From assembly GCA_050946935.1 (NCBI GenBank), contig JBMNVR010000006.1, forward strand, positions 22,691-86,690: 64,000 nt of DNA. The letters run 5' to 3'. The stretch comes from Candidatus Howiella sp. (GTDB lineage: Bacteria > Bacillota > Clostridia > Oscillospirales > Acutalibacteraceae). The position numbers and the translations under genes were made by a program. Under the pieces are notes generated by a model. It saw nothing but the letters and a program-made list of their open reading frames with translations, ran no database searches and was not told the DNA's origin. Below, piece by piece: positions 240 to 33,174 of this stretch (the stretch's first letter is position 1; every line of letters begins with the position of its first letter).

Positions 240-2930
240 TCAACTGGCGGAATCTGCGTATGTACTGACTGTTTTCGCCGAACTGCACACCGTATAGGTT
301 TCGCCCTCATAGGAATAGGTCAGATAGAAAATCACCGTGCGCAGGCGGTCGGGAGCGACGTTCTTCAGCCGGAAGCCATAACGGACATAAACGTCTATAT
401 CCTCCCCGCTGTTGAAAGACACCATCCGTGCCAACGCATCCATATCTCCGGAAATCAGCTTGCTGATTTCCGCTTCCGACGTGGCGTAATACACGCCGTA
501 ATTCTTGATCTGAATCTGGCTGCTGATGTCAGCGTAGGAGGTATTTTCCCCGGCCAGAATATGAGCGTTCCAGGTAATATCATACCGGTCTTCTGTAACC
601 GAATTGGTCACCATGCCTTCAGAAATATCAAAAGACATATCTACCGTGATCTCCCGCAAAGCGGCGATGGCCGCGCGGATAGCGGCGGCAAAAGCGTCTA
701 CCTCTTCCTGTCGGCCGGCGGGAAGGTCGCGAACCACGGCGCCGACCGCGTTTTGCAGGGCAAGCGTCGTCTCCAGAGTATATATGGAGAGGTCGCTTGG
801 GATCTCAGCGATTGCAGCGTCCACATCAGTATAATCCGCCGGCTCCGGTGCGTAAAGCTGCAGCTCAGCAAACTGTGTCCGGTTGTTGGTCGCGCCATTG
901 TTCGCGGTAATCTGCAACCGGTAGAATGTATAAGCCGCCGCGCCTTCGATTTCATATTTCTTTGTGCTGGAGGTGTTGTCCTCCCGGTCGGAGAAATCCT
1001 GCTCTGTTCTCGTATCCAAAACGACCCATTCGTTTCCGTCCGTCGACCCTGCCAGAGTCCAGTCGCGCGGGTCCCGGATAAAAAAGGTCGACTGATCCTC
1101 CGCCGTACTGATCGAATAGGCGGAAAGGGTTCGTGCCTCAGTCAGGGCAAATGTAATCTCAATCGGCGCGTCAACCGACGGGGTCACCTCAAACAGGCAC
1201 TTGGTTCCAACCATACCGTCAAACAGATAGCGCGCCAGATAGGTTCCCTGCTGGGTAGCTGCGCTCTGGATCGAGTCAGGATCAATCAGCCTTCCAAGAT
1301 CGGTGGGATCGCTCTCCGGCTCGGTGAGACGACCTATCTTCATCTCGGCAATCTGGGTGCGGTTGTCCGCTCCGTTGTTGGCGGTAATATTCAGCTTGTA
1401 ATAGAGGTAGGGCGTGTCATTGGTAAAATAATAAGCCTTTTCCAAAGAGAGCTTATCACTGCGGCCGTAAAAATCCTCCTCCGTCCGGGTGTCCAGTACA
1501 ACCCAATCCTCTCCGTTCAGCGAACCCTCAAAGGTCCACGCCTTAGGATCCCGGGGGAACTGGCCGCTGCCGTCGATACCGGCGTAGAGACTGTAATAGC
1601 TGACCGCCTTGGCCTCTGACAAGCGGAAGGTGACAAAGACCGGATTATCCGTGCTTGGCGTAATGTTGAAAAGCACCTTGGTTGTGACATCATCGTCGAA
1701 CAAATTACCAATCGGCTGGGATGTGTTCTGCGGTGTAGCCGCATCAATCGAATCGCCGACGATAAAGGGCGTGTAATCCCAGTCTGCAATCTCTATGAAT
1801 TCATACCCGATCGACAATTCGGCAATATGGCTACGATTGGTTGCGCCGTTGTTTTCTGTAATGTTCAGCTTATAATATGTATAGGCCGTCTCATTGCTGA
1901 ACGTAAAGGTTTTCGCCTCATATCGGGTAGAGAAGGTCTGCCCCGCACGAGTGTCCAGCACAACCCAATCCTCTCCATTCAGCGAACCTTCGAAAGTCCA
2001 AGCCCTGGGATCCCGAGTGCTCTGATCACCGGCGGTAGTGACCGTATACCGGTTGACCACTGCCGCCTCGCTCAGGGCAAAGGAAGCCCATACCGGGCTG
2101 GCCTCCGTCGACTGGATACTCAGCAGCCACTTGGTCGCCGGCGTCCCGTCGATCAGGTGAGAAATATCGTGCGCCGCCTGCTGGGTTTCGGTCGAACCGG
2201 TCAGAGTTTCCGAATCAATCAAACCGGTCAAATCGGTATAGGTCGGCTCCGGCATTGCCACACGCTGGGTACTGACGGCTAACTCAGCCAACTGTGTACG
2301 GTTGGAAGATCCGGTATTAGACGTAATATTCAGCTTGTAGTACAAGTAAGCGACGTCGTTGTCAAACGAGTAGGTTGCATTTTGGTTTGCGCCGGCGGCC
2401 CGTCCGGTAAACTGCTGCCGGGTTCTCGTATCCAGCACGACCCAATCCTCTCCATTCAGCGACCCTTCAAAGGTCCACGCCATAGGATCCCGGTCATAGA
2501 GACTGAGATCCGTCTCGGCCGCCATGGTCAGAGTATAGGAACGGATCGCGGCCGCTTCAGACAGCCCGAACGACACCCAGACCGGACTGTCTTCCGAGGG
2601 GGCGGCATAGACCAGCCATTTGGTTGTATAATCGCCGTCAAACAGGTTTGCGACCAGGTTTTCTCCATTCCCCTCGCTGCCGTCAACCGATTCGGTCAAA
2701 ACGGTGACCGCCGCGTCATTTTCCTCACCAGAGGCAAGCACTCGCAGCGTTTCCGACGAAGACGCAGTCACTGGTTTCATCGACTGCGAAGCTTCTTTAC
2801 CGTTGTCCGCCTGCTGTGCCGCGTCAGTCGCTACTGCATAGCCCGAACTCATTCCGAAAATGCTGCAAATCAAAGCTGCGGACAGTAAAACCGAACAACA
2901 TTTTTTCCTCCATAACGCCATGATGACCAT
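240..2930 (-). CDS. Secreted multi-module glycan-binding protein: signal peptide, five tandem F5/8 type C (discoidin/CBM32-like) modules, and a conserved C-terminal module shared with three neighbouring genes
   Basis: 896-aa ORF. N-terminus MVIMALWRKKCCSVLLSAALICSIFG looks like a Sec signal peptide. Repeated ~140-aa units each contain DPRAWTFEGSLNGEDWVVLDTR and YYKLNIT motifs typical of F5/8 type C domains. The last ~130 aa (GMVTNSV..YDITWNAHIL..NYGVYYATSE..VYVRYGFRLKNV) align with the C-termini of 15673..18285, 18675..22517 and 23088..25794. Confidence 0.8.
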   Translation of the reverse strand: MVIMALWRKKCCSVLLSAALICSIFGMSSGYAVATDAAQQADNGKEASQSMKPVTASSSETLRVLASGEENDAAVTVLTESVDGSEGNGENLVANLFDGDYTTKWLVYAAPSEDSPVWVSFGLSEAAAIRSYTLTMAAETDLSLYDRDPMAWTFEGSLNGEDWVVLDTRTRQQFTGRAAGANQNATYSFDNDVAYLYYKLNITSNTGSSNRTQLAELAVSTQRVAMPEPTYTDLTGLIDSETLTGSTETQQAAHDISHLIDGTPATKWLLSIQSTEASPVWASFALSEAAVVNRYTVTTAGDQSTRDPRAWTFEGSLNGEDWVVLDTRAGQTFSTRYEAKTFTFSNETAYTYYKLNITENNGATNRSHIAELSIGYEFIEIADWDYTPFIVGDSIDAATPQNTSQPIGNLFDDDVTTKVLFNITPSTDNPVFVTFRLSEAKAVSYYSLYAGIDGSGQFPRDPKAWTFEGSLNGEDWVVLDTRTEEDFYGRSDKLSLEKAYYFTNDTPYLYYKLNITANNGADNRTQIAEMKIGRLTEPESDPTDLGRLIDPDSIQSAATQQGTYLARYLFDGMVGTKCLFEVTPSVDAPIEITFALTEARTLSAYSISTAEDQSTFFIRDPRDWTLAGSTDGNEWVVLDTRTEQDFSDREDNTSSTKKYEIEGAAAYTFYRLQITANNGATNNRTQFAELQLYAPEPADYTDVDAAIAEIPSDLSIYTLETTLALQNAVGAVVRDLPAGRQEEVDAFAAAIRAAIAALREITVDMSFDISEGMVTNSVTEDRYDITWNAHILAGENTSYADISSQIQIKNYGVYYATSEAEISKLISGDMDALARMVSFNSGEDIDVYVRYGFRLKNVAPDRLRTVIFYLTYSYEGETYTVCSSAKTVSTYADSAS

Positions 2931-14313: not shown

Positions 14314-14658
14314 ATGAAAGCAAGATTACCCAAAGGCGTGGGCGGCGGCCCCGGCAACATGAACAGCATGCTCAAGCAGGCGCAAAAAATGCAGGCCGAT
14401 ATTGAGGCGCTGCAGGCCGAGCTGGACGAGCGGGAATACAGCGCCGTCTCAGGCGGTGGGATGGTAGAGGTTACAGTCACCGGCAAACACCAGATTAAGT
14501 CGCTCAAGATCAACCCCGACGCGGTCGATCCCGAGGATGTCGAAATGCTGGAGGACATGATCGCCGTCGCTGTGAACGAAGCCATGCGCACCGCGGACGA
14601 GACCGCTGAAAAAGAAATGAGCGGCGTTACCGGCGGCATGAACTTTCCGGGGCTTTAA
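14314..14658 (+). CDS. ybaB: YbaB/EbfC nucleoid-associated protein
   Basis: 114 aa with [21 protein letters not shown]. Conserved position between dnaX and recR. Confidence 0.9.
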
Positions 14659-14660
14659 AT

Positions 14661-15263
14661 ATGGCATCGTACAAGGTAGCGCCCTTGATGCGGCTGATCG
14701 AGCAGTTCGAGCGGCTGCCGCAGATCGGACATAAAACCGCACAGAGGCTGGCCTTCCACGTCCTCGGTATGCCGGAAGGGCAAGCCGAGCAGTTGGCCGA
14801 GGCCATCACCGATGCCCGGCAGAAAATTCACACCTGTGCCGTCTGTCAAAACCTGACCGACGGAGAGCTTTGCAACATTTGCGCCGACGAGGGACGGGAT
14901 CACAGCCTGATCTGCGTGGTCGAGGATCCCCAGGATGTCATGGCATTTGAACGCACACGGGAATACGGCGGGCTGTATCATGTACTGCACGGCGTGATCT
15001 CTCCCTTGGACGGGGTCGGGCCGGAGCAGATCCGGATCAAAGAGCTGATGAGCCGCCTTTCCTCCGACGAGGTGCAGGAGGTCATCATGGCCACCAACCC
15101 CACAGTGGAGGGGGAGGCAACCGCCAGCTACATCTCTCGCCTGCTCAAGCCGATGGGAGTCAAGGTGACCCGGCTCGCCTACGGCATCCCGGTTGGCGGC
15201 GACCTCGAATATGCGGATGAGGTCACTCTCTCCCGCGCGCTGGAAGGGCGAAACGAAATCTAA
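14661..15263 (+). CDS. recR: Recombination protein RecR
   Basis: [35 protein letters not shown], a C4 zinc finger ([16 protein letters not shown]) and a Toprim domain. Confidence 0.9.
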
Positions 15264-15351
15264 ACCCACCTTTTCCCCGGCGGTTTGCCGGCAGATACCC
15301 CTTTGCGCGCATGTCCTTGGCAGCACGAGGTTTTCTTTACCCATCCCGCAT

Positions 15352-15395
15352 TTCCTATCCGGTCGGCCGAAAGCCGACCGGATTTTTATTTTGTC
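15352..15395 (+). terminator. Rho-independent terminator after recR
   Basis: Hairpin ATCCGGTCGGC-CGAAA-GCCGACCGGAT followed by TTTTATTTT. Confidence 0.5.
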
Positions 15396-15672
15396 CGAGT
15401 CCCCGCCGTCCTCCCCCCGAGATCTATAAGAGAGGCTGCAGCACCTGCAAAAAGGCAGGGGTTCTGATGCGCCGGTCAGCGCCGATATAGGCTGCTTCGG
15501 CAATACCAATGCCCAGATGCTTCGGAAAATCCCCAGCTTTGCGAATACCCCTCGTACATAAGAACACCCCCTGACGCAGAGAATCCAGTCTGTGTCAGGG
15601 GGTGTTTTATCGTTGTTTTAATTTATGCCGTGTTACAGTTGGTTTTGCCGTTTGTTCAGTTTTGTTTTTCGA

Positions 15673-17170
15673 CTACGCCGCAATGACGGCAAGCACCTCG
15701 TCGACCGTGCTGAGCAGGATGTAGCTCTGTCCGTTCAGCTCGTACTCGATGTAGAACATGGCCGCGCGTACACGGTTCTCGGTCACGTTCTTCAGCCGGA
15801 AGCCATAGGCGGTGTAGACATCTACATCCTCGCCCTGGGCAAAGACGATCTTACGGATCTGATCGGCCGAGGCATTCTTGTAGTCGTCCAGCACATCTTT
15901 GCCGGTCGAGTAGTAGACGCCGTAGTTCTTGAACTTTACACCGGCCGCGTTGATGTCCTCAGCCAGCTTGTCGTCGGGGAGAAGAATCCGTGCGTTCCAG
16001 GTGATGTCATACTTGCCCTCGGCCGCGGCGGTCACCATGCCGGCGCCGATGGTCAGCTCCATCTCGGCCGACGCGGGTACGAGAGCGAGGATAGCCTCCT
16101 CAATCGCGGCGGCATAGCCGTCGACCGTCGCCTGCTCGCTGGCTGTGAGGTCGCGCACCACCGCGTTCACCGCGGTCTGCAGTTTCGCCCAGGAGGCTTC
16201 GGTGTAGTCTCCCTCGGTCAGAGCGGCAGCCTTGTCAAGGGCCGCGTCCACCGCGGTGTAGTCGGCGTAAATAGACGCCGCAAACGCTACAACTGTATCA
16301 TTCAGAGTAAAATCACGGAATGTGGCCGGAATTTCAGCCGTTTCGGCCTTATTGCCGCCTTTACCGGTAAACAATCCGACCTGCACCGCACCGGAGAGCC
16401 CTTCGTGTTCCTTAGTCCAAACCGTCTCCCAAGTACTGTTGTCGGTGCTCCACGATGCTTCAAAGGAAGTCCCGGTTCTTACAATTTTCAAATAGATATC
16501 TGAACCCACAGCCGTATCGGCGACTGCGTTTTCACTCGGACTGCCGGCCTGCACATCCACGCCGCAAACGCAATTGTTTCCGTGGCCGGAATGATACCGT
16601 CGCTGTACCGAGAATATTTCCTCATCGCTCGCGTATACGATCAGGCCGGCCGACTGATAATCGGTGTCCGGGGCAAAGCTCAGTTTTGTGGTAACTGAAA
16701 AATCGCCCTCGCCCGCATCGGTCAGCAGCATGTTGGTGTACACCCGCGGGGAGTCCCAGAGTTCCCCGGTTGTCGTATACATGGTAATCTGTTTTTCAGA
16801 TTCCAAATCATACAGGGTTTTGTCCTCGTTTTTAAACGTCCAGACGTCGGACAGGGTATAAGCCGACTTGGGCGCCAACTGCGAAATTGCGTTTTCAATC
16901 GCGGCGGCCATGGCATCTACTTCAGCCTGCTCAGTGGCATACTTACCGGTAACCACTGCGGCAACCGCTGCGTCCACAGCCTTACAGGAAGCTACCGTAT
17001 ACTGTGTACGGTCGATCTTTTCGGCCGCCTCGATCGCCGCATTCACGGCCGTATAGTCCGCCTTGGGATCGTTTCTCATGATAAATTTCGCATCGGAATA
17101 GGTTCCGTTCGCGCCGTTTACGCTGTCTCCGCTTTGTAGAATACGAATTTCCAGACTGCTTTTGCCCTGC
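15673..17170. repeat. Inverted-repeat arm A (near-identical blocks ~15673-16330 and ~16860-17170) matching arm B at ~24360-25794
   Basis: Identical 62-aa antisense ORFs 16868..17056(+) and 24414..24602(-). Near-identical ORF pairs 15929..16117(+)/25350..25538(-) and 16722..16916(-)/24554..24748(+). The encoded protein blocks PKADYTAVNAAIEAAEK..ITMY and EIPATFRDFTLNDTVVAFAAS..end are ~97-100% identical between the two paralogs. The intervening concanavalin-like segment is only ~60% identical. Confidence 0.8.
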
Positions 17171-18285
17171 ACATTCAGGCTGATTTTCTCCGCCTCGCTG
17201 TCGCGGGTAAAGACCACACCGGATACATTGGCAGGCGTGACATCCTCGCCGTCAAGATAAACAGCAAACGTACACTGTCCGGAAGCAGCCCCTGTAATTC
17301 CTACATAGGATTCAAAGGTAACGGCGTCCACCGGGACAGCGTAGGCGATCTTGGCTGTTGCGTTGGCTGAAACGCCCTTGACCTGATAGGTGGCCACCCC
17401 GTTCATTTGCAACGTATAGGCCTTATACTCCACAGCGGCATCCACCCACTTGCCGGCCCAGCTGAAGCTTTCAGAGGTTGGGGTCAAATCGGAAAGATAT
17501 GTGATATTCTCCGGCTTTTCACCAATCACAACAGTGAGGGAGGGCGCCAATTTATCCGGGTTGGAAACCGTCGCCGGCAGACTACCGGTCAGGACATAGG
17601 TTCCGACGATTGCCGGCGTAAATTCGGAGATATCCCAGCTAACCTCCACCTCCTCTGTGGTATTGTCGCTCATCTGCAACGACACTGACTGCGGCAGAAG
17701 ATAAGGATCTCCGTAGGTAAGATTCAGAGTATCAGGATTCGTAATGCCCACAACCGAACGGCTGTCTTTTTCGGTAAATTCAAAATAATCCACCGTAATC
17801 CGATCACCGCTCGTCGTTCCGGTAAGGGTAAAGGTGATGGTATTATCCCCTTCGTTCAGTTCAACATCCCCGACCGTCACCAGCAACATTGCATTTTTCT
17901 TGGTCGCATACGTGCTGATCGGATCGCCAATGTTCGTCCCGTTTACCGAAACCTGAACAACCCCGGGGTTTCCGTCATGCGACCGATACTGCCAAGACAT
18001 GGAGTAGCTTCCCGCGTTCATGGTCGACACCGTATAGGTCACATATTCTCCGACGCCGCCACCCGAGACCTGCAAATACCCGTCGCCCGAGATCGAATTC
18101 CCACCCGGCGAAAAAGTGCCTTTCGCGGCGGTGGCGCCATCCGAAACCACGTAGGAAGTTGTCTCTCCCTCGAATCTGGTCACGTCCCCTGCGACCGCGT
18201 TTACCGATGGAATCATCGACACGGAAAACAGAGATACCGTCAGCATCAAAGCCAGAACAAGCGCAAGACATTTTTTAATCTGCAT
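15673..18285 (-). CDS. Large secreted glycan-binding protein. Modules: CBM6/35-like, Ig-like, NPCBM-like, FIVAR helical repeats, concanavalin-like (GH43-C/DUF1349-like), and the conserved C-terminal module
   Basis: Signal peptide MQIKKCLALVLALMLTVSLFSVSMIPSVNA. An NPCBM-like segment (NITYLSDLTPTSESFSWAGKWVDAAVEYKAY..). A concanavalin-like segment (WDSPRVYTNMLLTD..DYQSAGLIVY..FSVQRRYHSGH). FIVAR-like DYTAVDAALDKAAALTEGDYTEASWAKLQTAVNAV. C-terminal module KYDITWNARILLPDD..YILLSTVDEVLAVIAA. Confidence 0.8.
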   Translation of the reverse strand: MQIKKCLALVLALMLTVSLFSVSMIPSVNAVAGDVTRFEGETTSYVVSDGATAAKGTFSPGGNSISGDGYLQVSGGGVGEYVTYTVSTMNAGSYSMSWQYRSHDGNPGVVQVSVNGTNIGDPISTYATKKNAMLLVTVGDVELNEGDNTITFTLTGTTSGDRITVDYFEFTEKDSRSVVGITNPDTLNLTYGDPYLLPQSVSLQMSDNTTEEVEVSWDISEFTPAIVGTYVLTGSLPATVSNPDKLAPSLTVVIGEKPENITYLSDLTPTSESFSWAGKWVDAAVEYKAYTLQMNGVATYQVKGVSANATAKIAYAVPVDAVTFESYVGITGAASGQCTFAVYLDGEDVTPANVSGVVFTRDSEAEKISLNVQGKSSLEIRILQSGDSVNGANGTYSDAKFIMRNDPKADYTAVNAAIEAAEKIDRTQYTVASCKAVDAAVAAVVTGKYATEQAEVDAMAAAIENAISQLAPKSAYTLSDVWTFKNEDKTLYDLESEKQITMYTTTGELWDSPRVYTNMLLTDAGEGDFSVTTKLSFAPDTDYQSAGLIVYASDEEIFSVQRRYHSGHGNNCVCGVDVQAGSPSENAVADTAVGSDIYLKIVRTGTSFEASWSTDNSTWETVWTKEHEGLSGAVQVGLFTGKGGNKAETAEIPATFRDFTLNDTVVAFAASIYADYTAVDAALDKAAALTEGDYTEASWAKLQTAVNAVVRDLTASEQATVDGYAAAIEEAILALVPASAEMELTIGAGMVTAAAEGKYDITWNARILLPDDKLAEDINAAGVKFKNYGVYYSTGKDVLDDYKNASADQIRKIVFAQGEDVDVYTAYGFRLKNVTENRVRAAMFYIEYELNGQSYILLSTVDEVLAVIAA

Positions 18286-18584
18286 AATCGTTTCCTCCTC
18301 AATTTCTTAATTTTATCGTCCGCATTTTATATAAAAAATCCACACGGCAACAATAAAATTTGTTTTTTCTTCCTATATAGAATAGCACTTTCCCATTCGA
18401 TTGTGCAATAAAAATATTGCTAAAATAAATAAAATATTTTAAATAATTAAGCCAATATCATCCTGGTTTATCATAAATATTATCAAAACAGTGTTTTTTT
18501 AAACAAGCCAGAATCATTTTTTGCAATTTTGATAAACAAGGAATGTAACCTTGTTTCCTTCTTGGATACACAGGCTAAAAAGAC

Positions 18585-18625
18585 AAAAGCAGCCTCCTGA
18601 AAAATCAGGAGGCTGCTTTTCGTTA
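18585..18625. terminator. Bidirectional Rho-independent terminator downstream of the 18675..22517 gene
   Basis: AAAAGCAGCCTCCTGA-AAAAT-CAGGAGGCTGCTTTT is a perfect palindrome with T-runs on both sides. Confidence 0.55.
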
Positions 18626-18674
18626 ACCGTTATACAAATAACCCGCGGCTGATCCGGCAAAACCCGGATGCATA

Positions 18675-21600
18675 TTACTCCGCAATCACAGCGACAACCT
18701 GATCGGTTGTGCTGAGAAGAATGTAGCTCTGCCCATCCAGTTCATATTCCAAATAGAACATAGCGGCACGAACCCTGTTTTCCAGCACGCCCTTGAGACG
18801 GAATCCGAACTGGGTATAGACCTCTATATCCGTACCCTGCTCAAAGACAATCTGCCGGATCTGCTCGGCCGAGGCATTCTTATAGTCATCCAGAACCTCG
18901 CTTCCGGTCGCGTAATACACGCCATAGGCTTTAAAGATGATGCCCGATTCATTAATCTCGCCGACCGAAGTATTCGCTCCCGGAACGATCGAACCATTCC
19001 AGGTAATATCGTACTTTCCGTCTTCGGCATTGGCGGTCACCATGCCGGTGCTGATCTGCACCGACATTTCAACCTTATCGGCGATATCCGCGATCAGTTG
19101 GAGGTCGGAAAGCGCCGCCTCAATCGCGTCGGCATAGCCGTCGACGACCGATTGCTCAGTGATCTTTTTGCCCTCGACCACCGCGTTCACCGCTTCTTCC
19201 AAAACCAACCAGCTTTCCGGCGTGTAGTTGGCCTGGGTCAGAGCGGCTGCCTTGGCCTTTGCCGTATTGACCCTCGAATAATCGGCGTCTTTTATCTCCA
19301 GCCCGGTCACTGCGCTCTCAATCGCGGAGGCATAGTCGTCCACCGTAGACTGAGCCGCAGGGGCAAGGTTGTATTCCACCGCATCCACAGCAGCAGTCAG
19401 AGCGTCCGCACTCGCGTCGGTATAGATCGAAAGATCGGCGGGGACCTTGGCCAGCGCGGCCAAAACCGCGTCATAGTTGGCTTCTTTCGTCGTGATCAGC
19501 GCCAGCTCTCCAAGCTGCATCTTGCCGACCGAGGACATGGTAAAGGCCGCCTTGAAATAGGTATAGCCTTCGGTTGCGCTGTCCAGATACATGGTAACCG
19601 GGGTATTATTGGTCGTCGGCAGGCTCAAGGCCGAGTTGATAATCTCGGTCCAGCTCTGACCCTCGTCATTGGAACCGTACAGAATCCAGGAGACCGGGTT
19701 GCGTCCGCCCGGCGTATTGTCCGCAACCGCGGTATCTCCGCCGGTGGAGAGGATATAGCCCGAGATCTTAACCGGCGTGGCCGTACTGAACACGGTATCC
19801 ACATAGCTGTCATTATTCATATACAGCTTATTGGTATAGTCGCCGTCGAACAGCTTCTCATAGCCCTCACTATCGTGCTCCCGTCCAGAGATCGGGGTGA
19901 CATACTTCGCGTTGTCATAAACTTCCAGCGCGTCGACCAGCGCGTCATAGGCCGCGCGGGCGGCAGTCAGGGTCGCATAATTGGTTACATAGACACGCGC
20001 GTCGACCAGAAGATCGGCATAAGCTGCCTCGGCCGCTTCGATGGCGGACAGCTTGTTGCCGGACGGGCCGAGGGTGGTCACCTCGCCAATCGCATCGATC
20101 AAAGCAACGACCGGCGCAGCCATCGTCTGAAGCTCTTCTTCGCTCAGCGTACTTTCAAAACCGTCGGCGGTCAATACGCCCTTGGCAAAGACCAGACGCT
20201 CAGCCGTAGACTCTGTCGCATTCAAATCGCCCGTACCCGAGAAGAAGGCAGTAGCGCCGCCCTTGGCGTCGATGACCGCCGCCATATCTCCGGTAATAAC
20301 ATAGCCGTTGCCAGCAGCAGTCTTCAACTGCGCCTCATACCCTTCGGCATCGGTGGCCAGCGCCACACTGCTGAGAATATCACCCGTGCTCAGCAAAACG
20401 GCCGAGCCATCATCGCTTTGGAAATTCTGATAATAGGTATTCTCGCCCGCGAGACCGGCGTTGGCCGTGGGATACCCGAGCGTCTTACCCGCCCACTTGT
20501 TGGTTTGCGCATAGTTGGCGTACATATACCGGAACACGTTGCCGATCGCAGCAGCATAGTCGCCGGATCCGGGGTAGGTCGCGACGGAATCTACCGTGAT
20601 GCTCTTCCCGTTTTCGCGCGGGGTGGTAACGTGCGAGATGGTTTTATCCCACATGACCTGATAGGTCCGCCCGTCGGCGGTCAGATCAAATTCCTCGCCC
20701 AGCGGCGCCTGCTTGTGATTATCGTTTACAACCATGTAGCCGCCGACATCAAAGGCCATTCCACTGAACGGCACAATCAGGTAGGACCAGTACCGTCCGT
20801 CCTGATTCCAGGGGTTCCAACAGTTGTCATTGGCGCCATTCTTGCCGATATCCACAAACTTGTTATCGAGCTGTGCGCCAAACACGCTGTCATGGTTTTC
20901 GGTTGACCCGGTGCGGCCGGAGACAACACCGATGTTAATCATCCGTTCGGAGTAGAAATATTTGACCGTATCCTCCATCGCGCGAAGGGTGGTGTTCCAC
21001 TCGTCGTCGGTCTGGAGCGCCAGCCAAGGCTGGTTGGTCGCAGTCATACGATCGCGGTTCAAAGTAAAGGTAACGCCAAAGTCGGCAATGACCTGCGCAT
21101 AGGTCGCCTTGGCATTCTTCGCGTCAGCATAGTTGACCACATAGGTCTGCACATCCGTCTCGCCCAAAGCAGAGACCGCATCGGTGTAAATTGCCTCGAT
21201 CGCATCCAGACTGGTTTTGGATTTATAGGTGATCGGCATGACCGCCTTGATCGCTTCGATCGTGTTGTAGATATAGGTATAATCCTTGCCGTCCGCTTTG
21301 GCCTGCGCGATGGCCGCCGGCGCGGTGAGATCGGCAATATTGGAGACATATGCCTGATTCTCCACGCTCAGAGCCGCATACGCATCCCGCGCGGCGTCAA
21401 CCGCTTCGAAATACGCGTCGGTGAGCGGCTCAGTGGAAGCAATCGCGGCAATCAGCGCCTCCGTCTCCTCGATCGCAGCCGTGCCCGAATACACGCTGCC
21501 ATAGGTCCGCCACTCATCGAACTGGCAATAGCCGCTGGTGATGTTTCTGAAAGCGGTAATCTCCAATTTGTAATAGGAATATTCGGCCGGGCTGTCCACC

Positions 21601-22517
21601 TTGAACATGGTGTCTACCCAGCAGCAGCGCGTCTCTGACGCAGGGGTAAAATCGGTCACCGCGTCGATCAGCGTGTAATCCTTTCCGTCAGAGGAGCCGT
21701 AGAAATTCCAGGATTTCGGATCGCGCTCGCTGCTGTCGTTGGCCGTCATATAGGTATAAGCGTACACCGTGGTCGGCACGGTCGTCGTATAGGTCAGAGT
21801 GGGCACCTCGCCCGCGTCGAAATTGATGCCCATTTTGTTGCCGAGACCGGCAAAAAGCTTAGCCGGGCCTTCCCCGCCATCGGCCCCGGTTTTGCTGCGG
21901 CTTCCCGAAACAACCTTTGCGTTATCGGCATCCACATAGGAGGTCAGATCAGTAATGGCATCCTTGTAAAAATACATCTGCCGGGCATTGGCCACGGCGG
22001 AATACCCCTCCTCGCCGATATACTCGACTGAAATGGTCTGTGTACCCGTCAGTCCCGCAAAGGAGACGATGGTCGAGAGATTGCGATTCTCCCAACTGGC
22101 ATCGGAGGACCGGGTATAGGGCGGCAGCTTCACATTGCCAAGCAACGTGCAGTTTGCAGGATCAGTCCAGTAGTTGCCAAGATAGACGTTGGCGTTGGCC
22201 GAAGCCGGGCAGCGGTTATCCGTGCTGCGCCCCGAATAGTGGATTTGCATCGATGAGTAGGTTCCTTCCCCGAATTCGATGCTGTAAACCGCGACCGAAC
22301 CGTTGATCGTACTGATGTTGCTCGTCTCATTCGCAACACCGTAGTTGCCGTTGGAATTGGTTTCGGTCTTGCTGGTTGCACCAATGGTGGTGTTGCACTC
22401 TACCGTTAGGTAGTCGGCCGATGCATACTCGGCCACGACTGTAAACATAGCCATCGGCAAAGCCGAAAGACACAGGCAGACAGCGAGCAACACAGCAAGC
22501 AGCTTCTTTGCTTTCAT
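18675..22517 (-). CDS. Giant (~1280 aa) secreted multi-module protein. Modules: CBM-like N-terminal domain, two F5/8 type C modules, several FIVAR helical repeats, a ~300-aa central domain of unknown function, and the conserved C-terminal module
   Basis: Start MKAKKLLAVLLAVCLCLSALPMAMF at 22517 with RBS AGGAGGAAAAATC. First discoidin segment DPKSWNFYGSSDGKDYTLIDAV..YYKLEITAF. Second discoidin segment YEKLFDGDYTNKLY..NPVSWILYGSNDEGQSWTEI. C-terminus KYDITWNGSIVPGANT..YILLSTTDQVVAVIAE. Confidence 0.8.
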   Translation of the reverse strand: MKAKKLLAVLLAVCLCLSALPMAMFTVVAEYASADYLTVECNTTIGATSKTETNSNGNYGVANETSNISTINGSVAVYSIEFGEGTYSSMQIHYSGRSTDNRCPASANANVYLGNYWTDPANCTLLGNVKLPPYTRSSDASWENRNLSTIVSFAGLTGTQTISVEYIGEEGYSAVANARQMYFYKDAITDLTSYVDADNAKVVSGSRSKTGADGGEGPAKLFAGLGNKMGINFDAGEVPTLTYTTTVPTTVYAYTYMTANDSSERDPKSWNFYGSSDGKDYTLIDAVTDFTPASETRCCWVDTMFKVDSPAEYSYYKLEITAFRNITSGYCQFDEWRTYGSVYSGTAAIEETEALIAAIASTEPLTDAYFEAVDAARDAYAALSVENQAYVSNIADLTAPAAIAQAKADGKDYTYIYNTIEAIKAVMPITYKSKTSLDAIEAIYTDAVSALGETDVQTYVVNYADAKNAKATYAQVIADFGVTFTLNRDRMTATNQPWLALQTDDEWNTTLRAMEDTVKYFYSERMINIGVVSGRTGSTENHDSVFGAQLDNKFVDIGKNGANDNCWNPWNQDGRYWSYLIVPFSGMAFDVGGYMVVNDNHKQAPLGEEFDLTADGRTYQVMWDKTISHVTTPRENGKSITVDSVATYPGSGDYAAAIGNVFRYMYANYAQTNKWAGKTLGYPTANAGLAGENTYYQNFQSDDGSAVLLSTGDILSSVALATDAEGYEAQLKTAAGNGYVITGDMAAVIDAKGGATAFFSGTGDLNATESTAERLVFAKGVLTADGFESTLSEEELQTMAAPVVALIDAIGEVTTLGPSGNKLSAIEAAEAAYADLLVDARVYVTNYATLTAARAAYDALVDALEVYDNAKYVTPISGREHDSEGYEKLFDGDYTNKLYMNNDSYVDTVFSTATPVKISGYILSTGGDTAVADNTPGGRNPVSWILYGSNDEGQSWTEIINSALSLPTTNNTPVTMYLDSATEGYTYFKAAFTMSSVGKMQLGELALITTKEANYDAVLAALAKVPADLSIYTDASADALTAAVDAVEYNLAPAAQSTVDDYASAIESAVTGLEIKDADYSRVNTAKAKAAALTQANYTPESWLVLEEAVNAVVEGKKITEQSVVDGYADAIEAALSDLQLIADIADKVEMSVQISTGMVTANAEDGKYDITWNGSIVPGANTSVGEINESGIIFKAYGVYYATGSEVLDDYKNASAEQIRQIVFEQGTDIEVYTQFGFRLKGVLENRVRAAMFYLEYELDGQSYILLSTTDQVVAVIAE

Positions 22518-23087
22518 GATTTTTCCTCCTTCATATATTCCGTTTTCAGAACACCGAAAGTTATTTGGCCACAAAAACAGGTGTTTTTACGACACACTTG
22601 CTCAAACTTCACTATATTTTTACAAAAATCCGGAGAAGCTTTAAGCACAATAACTATCTTCCTATTATGTATAGCACATTTTGAAAAATAATTATATAAA
22701 AATTGTGCTCTAAAATTCCAAATTTTTGTTTTAAAATGTTTCAATTGAATCCACACTGAAAGATTCTCGCCTTTTTATTCACTTGAAGGATTCAAGCGTG
22801 GTAAAATTTTGTTAAATAGTATTTTTTTGTTATAGTCTGCTCGAATTTTTCCTTTACAACCATCCATTTGATAACAAAAGAACATCTTTTCTGAAAGAAT
22901 ACTCCAAAAAAGAAGAATTCGCCTTTTTTACACAGCACCATATGTTCGGGTCAGTAAATTGTCATATTTTTTCAATTTATTTGTATTATAGTTAAAACAA
23001 CTTAACTTTTTATTGATTTTTATGGACTATATTGTATAATATTAAGCATAAAGTTTATGTTTAGTATGTTATAGGAGGTAAAAGACA

Positions 23088-25794
23088 ATGAAAAAATATA
23101 TTTTCAAAGCGTTTTTGATCATCCTTGCTCTGGCCATGGCGCTGTCATCCGTGGGGACTACGCTGGTGGTCGCTGCTATCAACGACGGGGACGAGGTGAT
23201 CTATCTCTCCTCCAACGAGGGTCAGAAGTTGCTGACCGACTCCAACACCGGATTTGGCGATCTCACCTACAACCAGAATCTGAACAAGAACGGGAAGATC
23301 ACCTACAACAAGCCGAATACGACAGGGGATTCCTATACGGCAACCGAATCTGACAACGGATTGGTCGCCCATGCCGAGGCCAACCTCTATTATAATATTG
23401 AGGGGCAGGGCTTTACTGCGTTTGAAAGCTGGATTGGCATTGATTCAGTCACCGGCAACGGAGACGGGGTAGCCAGCGTAATTTTTGAATTTTATCTTGA
23501 CGACGCCCTAATCTATACGGCGAGCGAGCAGACCCTTACCTCGGCGGCCGAGTATGTTTCCATCAACATCAGCGGCGGCAAGACCTTCCGGATCCATATT
23601 GACCCGAACGGTGTGAACAACTGCGACCACGCCGTACTGGTCGAGGCCGCTTTCTTAAAACAGAGTGCGGAGGGGAAGACCACCGTGACCTCGATCACAC
23701 CGCAGTTTATGAACATGGAGTATGCGCAACCATATGTGTTTCCCTCCACCGCCAGCGTCACCCTGAGCGATGGCACCACGCAGGAATGTGCCGTGTCGTG
23801 GGACACCTCTTCATTTTCAGCGACCACACCGGGAGAGCAGCTACTAAACGGCACAATCAGGCTTGGTGACAACATGCTGAATCCGAATGGGGTGCATGCC
23901 TCCCTCAGCGTGACGGTCGGGGAGAAGGATGAAAACATTCTCTATCTTTCCGATCTGACGGTCCAGGATGAATCCTATGACTGGGCATCCTCCTGGCTGG
24001 ACGCTGCGGTGGAGAACAAGACCTGGCAGTTGAAGATTGAGGATGTCTATACCAACATGGTAAAGGGCGTCTCGGCCAATACCTACGCCTATCTGACCTA
24101 TGAAATTCCGACCGGTGCGACGAATTTTGAGGCGTATGTCGGCACAACAGCGGCTGCGTCCGGTAAGACCGCGTATTCCATTCGGCTTGTACGATACCTA
24201 TGAAAACAAGGATTCGACGTATACGGACGCGACGCCGGATAACATCAAGAACGCGGTTTTCACCAAGGACACCAATGCACAGAAGATCAGCGTAGACGTT
24301 ACCGGATACAATTACATCATGATCCGCTTTGAAAAGGTAAACGACGACAACTCCAGCGCGCACGGCACGTATGCGGACGCCAAATTTCTGATGGAAGACG
24401 CACCTAAAGCGGACTATACGGCCGTGAATGCGGCGATCGAGGCGGCCGAAAAGATCGACCGTACACAGTATACGGTAGCTTCCTGTAAAGCTGTGGACGC
24501 AGCGGTTGCCGCAGTGGTTACCGGTAAGTATGCCACTGAGCAGGCTGAAGTAGATGCCATGGCCGCCGCGATTGAAAACGCAATTTCGCAGTTGGCGCCC
24601 AAATCGGCTCATACCCTGTCCGACGTCTGGACGTTTAAAAACGAGGACAAAACCCTGTATGATTTGGAATCTGAAAAACAGATTACCATGTATGCGACAA
24701 CCGGGGATCTCTGGGATTCCCCGCGGGTGTACACCAACATGCTGCTGACCGATGCGTCAGAAGGGAATTTCACTGCGACGGTGCAGCTGACCTTCTCGCC
24801 GGACACCGATTATCAGTCGGCCGGCCTGATCGTATACGGCAGCGATGCGGAGATCTTCTCAGTACAGAGGCGGTATCACTCTGGCCACAACGGCAACTGT
24901 ATCTGCGGCGTTTCGGTGACGTCGGGCAACCCGAGCGAATCGTCGGTCAGCGACACCGGCGCGGAAACGATCTATCTGAAGGTAGAGCGGACAGGGAACA
25001 GCCTCGCCGGATACTGGAGCACGGACAATACCGAGTGGACGACCGTTTGGACCAAGGAAAACGCCTCGCTTTCGGGCACAGTTCAGGTAGGCCTGTATAC
25101 TGGCAAGGGAGGAGATTCCCCAAAGGCAGCTGAAATTCCGGCCACATTCCGTGATTTTACTCTGAATGATACAGTTGTAGCGTTTGCGGCGTCTATTTAC
25201 GCCGACTACACCGCGGTGGACGCGGCCCTTGACAAGGCTGCCGCTCTGACCGAGGGAGACTACACCGAAGCCTCCTGGGCGAAGCTGCAGACCGCGGTGA
25301 ACGCGGTAGTGCGCGACCTCACAGCCAGCGAGCAGGCGACGGTCGACGGCTATGCCGCCGCGATCGAGGCGGCTATCCTCGCCCTCGTACCTACATCGGT
25401 TGAGATGAGTCTGACCATCGGCGCCGGCATGGTGACCGCCGCGGCCGAGGGCAAGTACGACATCACCTGGAACGCACGGATTCTTCTCCCCGACGACAAG
25501 CTGGCTGAGGACATCAACGCAGCCGGTGTGAAATTCAAGAACTACGGCGTCTACTACGCGACCGGCAAAGATGTGCTGGCCGACTACAAGAATGCCTCGG
25601 CCGATCAGATCCGTAAGATCGTCTTTGCCCAGGGCGAGGATGTGGATGTCTACACCGCCTACGGCTTCCGGCTGAAGAACGTGACCGAGAACCGTGTACG
25701 CGCGGCCATGTTCTACATCGAGTACGAGCTGAACGGACAGAGCTATATCCTGCTCAGCACGGTCAACGAGGTGGTTGCCGTCATCACGGCGTAA
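23088..25794 (+). pseudogene. Frameshifted paralog of 15673..18285 (NPCBM-like, concanavalin-like, FIVAR and C-terminal module), split into ORFs 23088..24203 and 24100..25794
   Basis: The N-terminal ORF has a signal peptide (MKKYIFKAFLIILALAMALSSVGTTLVVA) and NPCBM-like content. It stops at 24203 (..GKTAYSIRLVRYL*). The reading frame continues in the +1 frame (IPFGLYDTYENKDSTYTDA..) and aligns to the intact paralog (..CTFAVYLDGEDVTPANV..). The frame switch lies near 24175-24190. Confidence 0.7.
24360..25794. repeat. Inverted-repeat arm B (matches 15673-17170)
   Basis: See arm A. The same identical or near-identical antisense ORF pairs apply. Confidence 0.8.
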
Positions 25795-25974
25795 AGCGCA
25801 CCACGGATACATGAATTAAGCTGCAACCCAACTGTAAGGTTTTATACACTGCAAAACATCCCCGCCCTTTCCGGAAGAATCCGAAAAGGGCGGGGATTTC
25901 ATATGCAAGTCAAGCAAAAAGACGCCGCCGACAGAATCTTGTCGACGGCGTCTAACCCGAAAGTGTTTATAAAA

Positions 25975-27453: not shown

Positions 27454-28764
27454 TTACCATGCCGTCGCTCTATCCCCCTCGATATTCGCCGTCCACACTG
27501 GCAAAGCCGCATCCCCGGCGTTTGAAGCAAAATAGCTGTATCCGGACCAAAGCGCCAGCGAAAGCAGCGCGATCACAATAACAGCAATGACAAATTTAGC
27601 CGCACGGCTGACAGGCAGCAGTTCTTCCTCCACCGGCGCCGCAGGATCGCGATCATTCGATAATTCCACCGGCTCCACCCAATCCCCCGGCTTGGGCGTA
27701 TCCACAAAATTCGGGACACGCATTTTCTCCATCTTGACCGGCGGGAGGCCTTTCTCCGCATCCGCGCAGTCTGCCGGATCATCCTGCCGAAAATCAACTA
27801 CAGGCGCTGTCTCCTGTTCTATACAAGATGAGGCAGCGGGGCGAATATCCTTCAGCTCGACATGTGCCTGAGGCAGCGGTTCAGGTGCGGCGGACGGAAA
27901 AGAGAGCTTTTCGGGCAGCCGTTCTGCCTTCCCCGCGTGGTCGGAGGATAAGCGCAGCCGGGGCAACTCCGCCAGAATTTTGCGTTCGGCGGCCGAAGGC
28001 TCTTCCACCTGCGGAATGTGCGGCAAATCTCTGCCGGCCGCCGGATCCGTACCCGGCCGCCGGGGCGTCAGAACGACCCGCTCGCTTTTAATCGGTTGGA
28101 AAGGTGCAGAAGGAATTTCTCTTTTCTCCCTCTTTATCGGAGCGGCCGCCGCTGACTGCGTTTCCACGGGCAGCGGCTTGTCCGGCGTATTCTGCGAGAG
28201 GGACCCGGTCTCTTCCCCGTCGGATAATTCACCGGCCTCCTCCGTCGGAACCGGACGGACGTCACCGCTGCCGGGCGCCGCCCCCGCCGGCTGCACGGCC
28301 GGCGGATCGGCCCACATATACCGGGCCTGAATATGCGGCAAAATTTTCTCCCGCGCCAGACGAACACGGCCAGACCGCTCTTCATCCAGGAAAAAGATCA
28401 TCTGCGGTCCGCTGCAAAGCATCGCGCCACGCAAACAGCCGTCCAATGCAAACGGAACCGCCCCAGCCGGAAAAACCAGTGTTTCTTCCGGTGCTGCGCC
28501 GGCCAATCCGACCCGCTGGCAGGAAAACCCGATCGCCGCCGCGACCGTCGCCGGCAGATATATGTTCCCGTAAAACCCGCCGACAATCAGGATGACCTCG
28601 CTCCGGCCGACGGCGCGGCTGAGGGCGTGCACCGCCTCCGTTTTGGTGGAGGCGGTTTGGGTCAGTAAGCGCAGGTCGTAACCGCCGCCATACAGCTCGG
28701 ATTCAAAGCCCCAATCGGCCGGTGTGCAAAAATAAATAATGTCTATGCGTACATCCTTGTTCAA
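27454..28764 (-). CDS. Hypothetical protein: ~150-aa N-terminal globular domain, long Pro/Glu/Ala-rich disordered region, single C-terminal TM helix
   Basis: TTG start at 28764 with RBS AAGAGGA 8 nt upstream. C-terminal ..LLPVSRAAKFVIAVIVIALLSLALWSGYSYF. It lies 36 nt downstream of the sortase-fusion ORF on the same strand. Confidence 0.5.
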   Translation of the reverse strand: MNKDVRIDIIYFCTPADWGFESELYGGGYDLRLLTQTASTKTEAVHALSRAVGRSEVILIVGGFYGNIYLPATVAAAIGFSCQRVGLAGAAPEETLVFPAGAVPFALDGCLRGAMLCSGPQMIFFLDEERSGRVRLAREKILPHIQARYMWADPPAVQPAGAAPGSGDVRPVPTEEAGELSDGEETGSLSQNTPDKPLPVETQSAAAAPIKREKREIPSAPFQPIKSERVVLTPRRPGTDPAAGRDLPHIPQVEEPSAAERKILAELPRLRLSSDHAGKAERLPEKLSFPSAAPEPLPQAHVELKDIRPAASSCIEQETAPVVDFRQDDPADCADAEKGLPPVKMEKMRVPNFVDTPKPGDWVEPVELSNDRDPAAPVEEELLPVSRAAKFVIAVIVIALLSLALWSGYSYFASNAGDAALPVWTANIEGDRATAW

Positions 28765-32970: not shown

Positions 32971-33174
32971 TCTGTAACCGTGCCTTTCCGTACCGTCAGA
33001 CTTTTTTTCAAAAACGATGCCGCGCACCGTTTGTTTTACCCTGAAAAGCCATGCGTCAAACAGCACGGCTGTTTTTTCTTTCCTCTCCGGGATTTCGGCG
33101 CCGCGCCATCCGCGCGGCAGAAGGCGGTTTGCGCCAACAAAAATTCCCGCGTAAACCGTTCGAAGAAGGGTTTT

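Follow-up and report, generated by a model that had tools for sequence, protein, structure and literature searches.

How two genes lying in opposite orientation have come to share nearly identical 3′ ends around a domain that has remained different, and whether the segment between these ends is invertible, are the questions raised by a locus in a stretch of 64,000 nucleotides (nt)—hereafter the window—of chromosomal DNA from an uncultured gut bacterium of the Clostridia. The first of the two genes, gene A (15673..18285, minus strand; defined by its open reading frame (ORF), the translation and Pfam), codes for a secreted multidomain protein of 870 amino acids (aa), identical to the NCBI protein MGI6269888.1 from a metagenome-assembled genome (MAG) of Candidatus Howiella sp. 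Its paralogue, gene B (23088..25794, plus strand), codes for 901 aa when intact and is split in the window by an extra T; between the two lies the central gene C (18675..22517, minus strand), with a secreted product of 1280 aa giving a weak match to the F5/8 type C domain. The answer put forward here is that the tails of A and B have very probably been homogenised by ongoing ectopic gene conversion.

Concerning the domain arrangement, the product of gene A consists, according to Pfam, of a signal peptide, a weak CBM6-like/DUF8441 head, Big_4, NPCBM, a first FIVAR domain (FIVAR1), a concanavalin-like (ConA-like) domain of the GH43_C2/DUF1349 type, a second FIVAR domain (FIVAR2) and a C-terminal domain (CTD) of 135 aa. 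Gene B begins with a signal peptide of its own and an additional NPCBM head at the N-terminus, after which the domain order is that of A. The two genes lie tail-outward, each with its own start and signal peptide, and their 5′ halves share 31% aa identity.

Near-identical blocks in the tails of A and B

The 3′ parts of A and B form, by blastn, one continuous inverted alignment of 1443 nt with 87.7% identity and 3 gaps, which is far beyond chance. A repeat search delimits two pairs of arms, 15674-16497/24970-25793 (824 nt, 89%) and 16514-17114/24356-24956 (601 nt, 87%), the inner ends of the inverted arms being 7241 nt apart. The homology stops exactly at both stop codons, the 3′ flanks of A and B being unrelated. 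In the same search, the central gene C matches A and B only by a diverged copy of the tail (71-74% nt identity); this FIVAR and CTD copy, covering the last ~600 nt of the gene (18675-19288) and 68-74% identical to A and B at the nucleotide level, is too diverged to participate in the exchange between them.

The alignment is a mosaic. Block 1, with FIVAR1 and the start of the ConA-like domain, occupies 348 nt of A (16714..17061, minus strand) and differs from its counterpart in B (24409..24756, plus strand) by 6 mismatches (98.3% identity), whereas the following middle, i.e. the ConA-like core (16339..16713, minus strand, in A; 24757..25128, plus strand, in B), is divergent, with 66% nt and 64% aa identity. 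Block 2, covering FIVAR2 and the CTD (15673..16338, minus strand, 666 nt, in A; 25129..25794, plus strand, in B), is again nearly identical (27 mismatches, 95.9% identity), nine of its 27 mismatches being clustered at 25383-25410. The identity around the two blocks is 58-75%, and within the blocks the two arms hold 33 fixed differences. The longest perfect runs between the arms measure 155, 113, 83, 83 and 80 nt; when the positions of the mismatches were permuted in 20000 trials, the longest run averaged 45 nt and never exceeded 111 nt. The inverted, near-identical 3′ halves and the mosaic with a divergent concanavalin-like segment, both described in the initial annotation of the window, are thus real features, as are the limits given there for block 2; those of block 1 were displaced by ~50-100 nt (24409-24756 instead of 24360-24660).

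The synonymous divergence (dS) between A and B is as low as 0.05 for block 1 and 0.10 for block 2, reaches 2.3 in the middle and is saturated upstream, and third-position mismatches number 21/338 inside the blocks and 71/142 outside. Low values in the blocks beside a middle with dS above 2 indicate that the identity is recent and not due to protein constraint. The same follows from a comparison with the orthologue of A in the related species UMGS577 (L004/L001), which has the same head and, nearby, genes for the cinA-sortase, a 436-aa protein and EamA that are also present in the window. A radical-SAM gene standing beside that orthologue is absent from the window, so the two loci are not syntenic in detail. 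In the blocks, A and B are 97-98% identical to each other and each only 71-82% identical to L004 (72-82% for A), whereas in the middle A is closer to L004 (76% nt) than to B (66% nt). Since the paralogues are closer than the orthologues in the blocks, the homogenisation postdates the split of the species.

A second case is found in the UMGS577-like lineage itself. L005, the orthologue of the locus L003 (90.7% over 5.5 kilobases (kb)), carries a ~1-kb tail—FIVAR1, the ConA-like core and FIVAR2—that is 99-100% identical to an A-type gene at another locus (L005 4079-5477 vs L004 3971-5365), while L003, its own orthologue, is only 85-89% identical to it across that tail. This is an independent conversion event with different limits, one that included the ConA-like core. 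As the limits of the mosaic differ between the lineages, the mosaic has been re-made and not inherited as a pattern. The gene conversion proposed in the initial annotation is borne out by dS, by the comparison with the orthologue and by the differences between conspecific strains described below.

Strain series, direction of transfer and mechanism

A scan of metagenome contigs with the tail of A recovered no conspecific contig, the best matches being 77-81% identical; conspecific contigs were reached through cluster membership and invariant neighbour proteins. The most informative of them, L085 (ENA ERZ28618647), found via protein-cluster membership, is colinear with the window over 13087-35795 at 99.4%. 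The window and L085 differ most in block 2, by 3.15% in A and 2.4% in B, compared with 0.16-0.23% in the 5′ halves and 0.26% in gene C; overall, block 2 differs by 2.4-3.2% between the strains and the other coding regions of the locus by 0.2-0.8%.

At 17 sites of block 2 only the A copy of the window deviates, the A copy of L085 being the same as both B copies, and at 9 of these 17 sites the A of the window matches the outgroup. It follows that the A of L085 has been overwritten by B and, since B is unchanged at those 17 sites, that the transfer was non-reciprocal. A third allele of the A tail, found in the contig L088, is intermediate. Counted along the last 594 nt of the genes (15673-16266 in A, 25201-25794 in B; FIVAR2 and the CTD), it shares the conversions at positions 84-170 and 285-585 and keeps the older cluster at positions 183-210. 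There are thus, among conspecific assemblies ~99.4% identical to each other, three alleles of the A tail stepping towards B, so that conversion is ongoing in the species. The middle contains 126 paralogue-specific sites and none shared by strain, which means that no tract has crossed it in the strains compared. One further difference lies in the B copy of L085, where four changes occur within 5 nt (window-equivalent 25565-25569; TGK to TDA) and only there; it may represent a micro-conversion from another member of the family.

The extra T that splits B in the window lies at 24187 (plus strand), where the window reads cttg and the other strains ctg, and it divides the gene into the ORFs 23088..24203 and 24100..25794. 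It is also present in the Logan assembly of the run SRR31066337 (L097), which agrees with the window at 100% over 17032-24438 and appears to come from the sample of the window itself; if the sample is the same, its recurrence in a separate assembly means that the T is in the reads and is not a slip of the assembler. B is intact in five other contigs (L085, L119, L120, L121 and L122) from at least four other samples. The frameshift, already seen in the initial annotation, is therefore confirmed, yet it is restricted to one sample and is no feature of the locus; its position is upstream of block 1, in a part in which the divergence of A and B is too great for conversion to repair it. Insertions and deletions between the window and L085 number three, all of them single T's, at 15605 (in a terminator tail), at 24187 (the only coding one) and at 33002 (upstream of thiI).

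Taken together, A and B would be old paralogues in a family of secreted surface proteins of the glycan-binding type, in which differing N-terminal heads are set on a common tail composed of FIVAR, a ConA-like domain, FIVAR and the 135-aa C-terminal β-sandwich domain. The tails of A and B, ~7.2 kb apart, would have been repeatedly homogenised by non-reciprocal homologous recombination, with recent transfers running mainly from B into A. The tracts, a few hundred nt long, would end where the homology collapses, on one side at the stop codon and on the other at the diverged domain, leaving two near-identical blocks with a still diverged ConA-like core between them. With regard to the enzymology of the exchange, we infer break or gap repair of the RecA type, as well as occasional crossovers accompanying conversion. 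Conversion between tufA and tufB has a processivity of ~0.998 per nt and its tracts are blocked by large sequence differences (PMC5485169); the tract sizes at the present locus fit such measured bacterial conversion (PMC5485169).

Several points weigh against this explanation. All the sequences compared are metagenome assemblies, and conspecific contigs spanning the repeats are few. The blocks of A and B are, moreover, equally distant from the orthologue, so that a direction cannot be assigned to the older events in block 1 and block 2, and the dependence on RecA is an assumption carried over from other bacteria.

Inversion of the interval and other explanations

The 594-nt tail is not confined to A and B. 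It behaves as a module with ~90-97% nt identity in at least five genes of the species—A, B, D, E and F. Gene D (908 aa), with a LamG-like head, has its usual place beside a GDSL lipase gene (L103, L110 and L111), and the MAG of the window encodes both D and the GDSL lipase, with protein accessions two apart; gene E (966 aa) is found in L086 and gene F (1461 aa) in L112. In B, D and E the likeness extends ~60 nt into the 3′ untranslated sequence (25795-25858 in the window; 8902-8965 in L086; L110/L111), whereas the 3′ flank of A is unrelated, from which it follows that some members of the family received the module along with a short stretch of 3′ flank.

In one assembly, ERZ27244345 (made with MEGAHIT), the flanks of the module are switched. 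The contig L088 runs colinear with the window as far as 16266 and then continues with the 5′ part of D and the upstream neighbours of D. Its segment 10985-11578 thus joins the recR side, an A-type module and the 5′ part of D, the rest being 99.4% identical to the window. In L112 of the same assembly, the segment 13220-13813 joins the lipase side, a D-type module and the 5′ part of F. The switch point in L088 falls within 56 nt over which the A-type and D-type modules are identical (module positions 52-107). This stretch is shorter than the final k of 141 used by MEGAHIT, a point in favour of real junction reads. The pattern of ERZ27244345 would result from two successive crossovers between modules, the alternative being a misassembly.

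These junctions bear on the reading according to which the 348-nt and 666-nt blocks support inversion of the RecA type, so that 7.2-8.9 kb flip, the two orientations coexist in cell populations, and the distal halves of A and B change places. The arms have perfect runs of 155 and 113 nt, lie ~7-9 kb apart and exceed the minimal length for efficient recombination; conversion between the same arms is ongoing, and in ERZ27244345 the flanks of the module have been switched among members of the family, in L088 within a stretch shorter than the final k of the assembler. For the tuf genes, inversion has been reported with up to half of the recombination events (PMC6735719). On the other side, the switched junctions could be misassemblies, and the window and L085 share the full arrangement, with no inverted or recombinant form among the assemblies spanning the repeats. 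L119, from a third sample and spanning block 1 and the middle on both sides, shows the parental links (A 5′ part to A middle, B 5′ part to B middle), and there is only one 'cross' site among the four-way informative sites. The claim of an invertible segment of ~7 kb is therefore unsupported by the assemblies and no more than mechanistically possible, every spanning assembly (the window, L085 and L119) being in one arrangement, although with two to three informative assemblies the sample of orientations is tiny and the test weak, short-read contigs usually breaking at repeats; the other conspecific contigs do end inside block 1 or the tail module, as expected of short-read assemblies.

Nor does the locus have the equipment of a switch. 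Within ~10 kb of it there are no genes with a recombinase domain; no short inverted recombination sites occur at the borders of the segment, where only the long coding arms and the weaker matches of gene C are found, and the guanine-cytosine (GC) skew across the segment does not point to a recent flip. The ConA-like cores would trade places after a crossover in block 1, and one in block 2 would leave the proteins almost unaltered; in neither case would a gene be turned on or off, each gene keeping a promoter-like site and a signal peptide. The proposed swapping of N-terminal modules between promoter-distal halves is accordingly reduced to, at most, the ConA-like middle domain. All in all, inversion is likely to take place at some low rate and not as a designed switch, and the coexistence of both orientations in populations is doubtful.

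A single recent partial duplication of the tail of A onto B, with later replacement or divergence of the middle, or maintenance of the blocks by purifying selection, is a very unlikely substitute for gene conversion. It draws on the conservation of FIVAR and the CTD throughout the family (the CTD being ~80% identical at the aa level among paralogues and species) and, for the basic mosaic, one duplication and one replacement are as parsimonious as two tracts. However, dS of 0.05-0.10 beside dS above 2 is impossible by selection, and the orthologues differ by 18-28% in the very same blocks. The three conspecific A alleles differ by tract-like runs matching B, which a single old event cannot yield, and a replaced middle would itself be recombination.

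Less probable still, and indeed very improbable, is a programmed switch or a system of cassettes, in which the frameshifted B serves as a silent donor and the expressed A samples the ConA-like domain of B, through inversion or long conversion, with a change in ligand specificity or antigenicity. B is indeed out of frame in the sample of the window, recent transfers did run from B into A, and the ConA-like core is the one part kept different. Yet in the five other contigs B is intact, with its 901 aa, its own promoter-like site and its signal peptide; no tract crosses the middle in any strain, as the 126 paralogue-specific sites document, and neither a recombinase, nor short recombination sites, nor a cassette array is seen at the locus.

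The idea that a collapsed or mis-phased repeat in the assembly produced the blocks or their linkage is barely credible. In its favour, the window is a contig of a MAG, the perfect run of 155 nt exceeds common k-mer sizes and the blocks are where many short-read contigs break off. Assemblies obtained independently from other samples and with other pipelines (L085, L119 and L120-L122), however, repeat the structure and its block limits; over 17032-24438 a different assembler, working on what is apparently the sample of the window, gave an identical sequence (L097); and the arms keep their 33 fixed differences inside the blocks.

The tail module, the neighbouring genes and known systems

With gene conversion retained as the explanation for A and B, the module as a whole invites a broader, and on balance unlikely, reading as a genome-wide recombination hub, which would homogenise tails, move them between glycan-binding heads and, by crossovers, rearrange chromosomes on a large scale among strains that are 99.4% identical, as the switched junctions of ERZ27244345 suggest. 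If this were true, the strictly C-terminal domain would represent a new tag for surface attachment or sorting, confined to a narrow clade of Clostridia, and co-evolution with a partner would explain the uniformity of the CTD.

The undescribed CTD of 135 aa is present in four genes of the window (15673-16080, 25387-25791, 18678-19082 and 267-647) and carries the motifs ITWNA, YGVYY, FGFRLKNV and RAAMFYxEYE. It has no sequence match in Pfam or the PDB. A word-indexed search with the CTD alone returned one fragment, and a full profile search found it in only ~81 clusters among 1.84 billion representative proteins; in the best 51 full-length matches it ends 0-10 residues from the C-terminus of the protein. 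The AlphaFold2 (AF2) model is a β-sandwich with a predicted local distance difference test (pLDDT) score of 93, compared with 65 when modelled from a shallow alignment, and its structural neighbours are only generic FN3/Ig-like domains. There is no LPXTG motif in A, B or C, and a role of the CTD in attachment or sorting is a guess. The fourth gene of the window with FIVAR and CTD at its end (240..2930, minus strand), the CTD of which is 40% identical to that of A at the aa level, is a distant member of the family standing outside the exchange.

As far as transcription is concerned, A, B and C each have their own promoter-like site and terminator-like hairpin. The hairpin after C (18585..18620, minus strand) makes A a separate transcription unit, and that 3′ of A (15563..15606, minus strand) is unrelated to the one 3′ of B (25860..25895, plus strand). 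C and B diverge from an AT-rich intergenic region (22518..23087), in which the best promoter-like site for B is at 23013-23040 (10/12).

The genes within ~10 kb are dnaX, ybaB, recR, A, C, B, those for an EamA transporter and a small Sm_multidrug_ex protein, a gene for 436 aa without a Pfam match, cinA-sortase, thiI, a class-V aminotransferase gene and ypeB; of these, dnaX, ybaB, recR, cinA, thiI and ypeB have housekeeping functions. Although recR (14661..15263) adjoins the locus, it belongs to the usual dnaX-ybaB-recR cluster. An ORF called as the neighbour of A on the minus strand (14655..15509) is spurious, ybaB and recR on the plus strand being the actual genes there. The segment 28801-31665 (minus strand) is a single ORF of 954 aa comprising CinA (the MoCF_biosynth, CinA_KH and CinA domains) and a C-terminal sortase domain; conspecific assemblies have the fused gene called as well, and its UMGS577 counterpart is 80% identical along the full length, so that it looks like a real CinA-sortase fusion, situated near genes for surface proteins without LPXTG. 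Next to it, the gene at 27454-28764 (minus strand) codes for the 436-aa protein, rich in proline and acidic residues and with a hydrophobic segment near its C-terminus, which is conserved beside cinA-sortase in the species and has 56% identity to its counterpart in UMGS577.

At the A/B locus, ongoing gene conversion can be followed in a clean natural case from an uncultured gut anaerobe, with a strain series of three alleles showing the overwriting step by step, and the locus illustrates that in modular families of surface proteins a uniform common tail is compatible with diversifying heads. There is a practical aspect as well, in that such repeats break or may mis-join short-read assemblies and inflate the apparent divergence of strains.

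Among the systems known, the site-specific switches—Hin/Gin/Cin, fim, the invertons of Bacteroides and the plasmid shufflons—resemble A and B in having inverted repeats that flank a segment with the 5′ ends of genes. They rely, however, on a dedicated recombinase acting at recombination sites of tens of base pairs, and what they invert is a promoter or alternative ends of genes, whereas the repeats of A and B are long coding homology, with no recombinase gene nearby and one orientation in the sampled assemblies. The pilE/pilS system of Neisseria and vlsE of Borrelia share with A and B the non-reciprocal transfer from donor to recipient, in the present case with recent transfers from B into A. 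Their donors are promoterless partial cassettes in arrays and it is the variable part that is exchanged, whereas A and B are complete genes exchanging the conserved part.

The bab genes have near-identical end regions around a diverged, ligand-binding middle. Like A and B, babA, babB and babC of Helicobacter pylori are surface adhesin paralogues which recombine within one genome, giving chimeras (PMC3444412, PMC4552749). They differ from A and B in belonging to another phylum, in their folds and in that their exchange is tied to on/off and antigenic variation in infection; for A and B there is no evident consequence for expression, and it is the heads, not the middle, that are most different.

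A close counterpart in the mode of exchange is represented by tufA and tufB, which evolve in concert by RecA-dependent gene conversion, the same events being able to invert the intervening interval (PMC6735719). In Salmonella enterica and Escherichia coli these are, like A and B, inversely oriented paralogues kept alike by non-reciprocal tracts of hundreds of nt (PMC5485169). The tuf genes are alike over their whole length and lie 762 kb apart, whereas A and B exchange only their tails over 7.2 kb, with heads that are unrelated or 31% identical and a diverged core splitting the homology into two blocks; no inversion, moreover, is seen between A and B in the assemblies compared. In spite of these differences, the process is the concerted evolution of paralogues known from tufA/tufB and bab, with no new mechanism, here at work in a new protein family.

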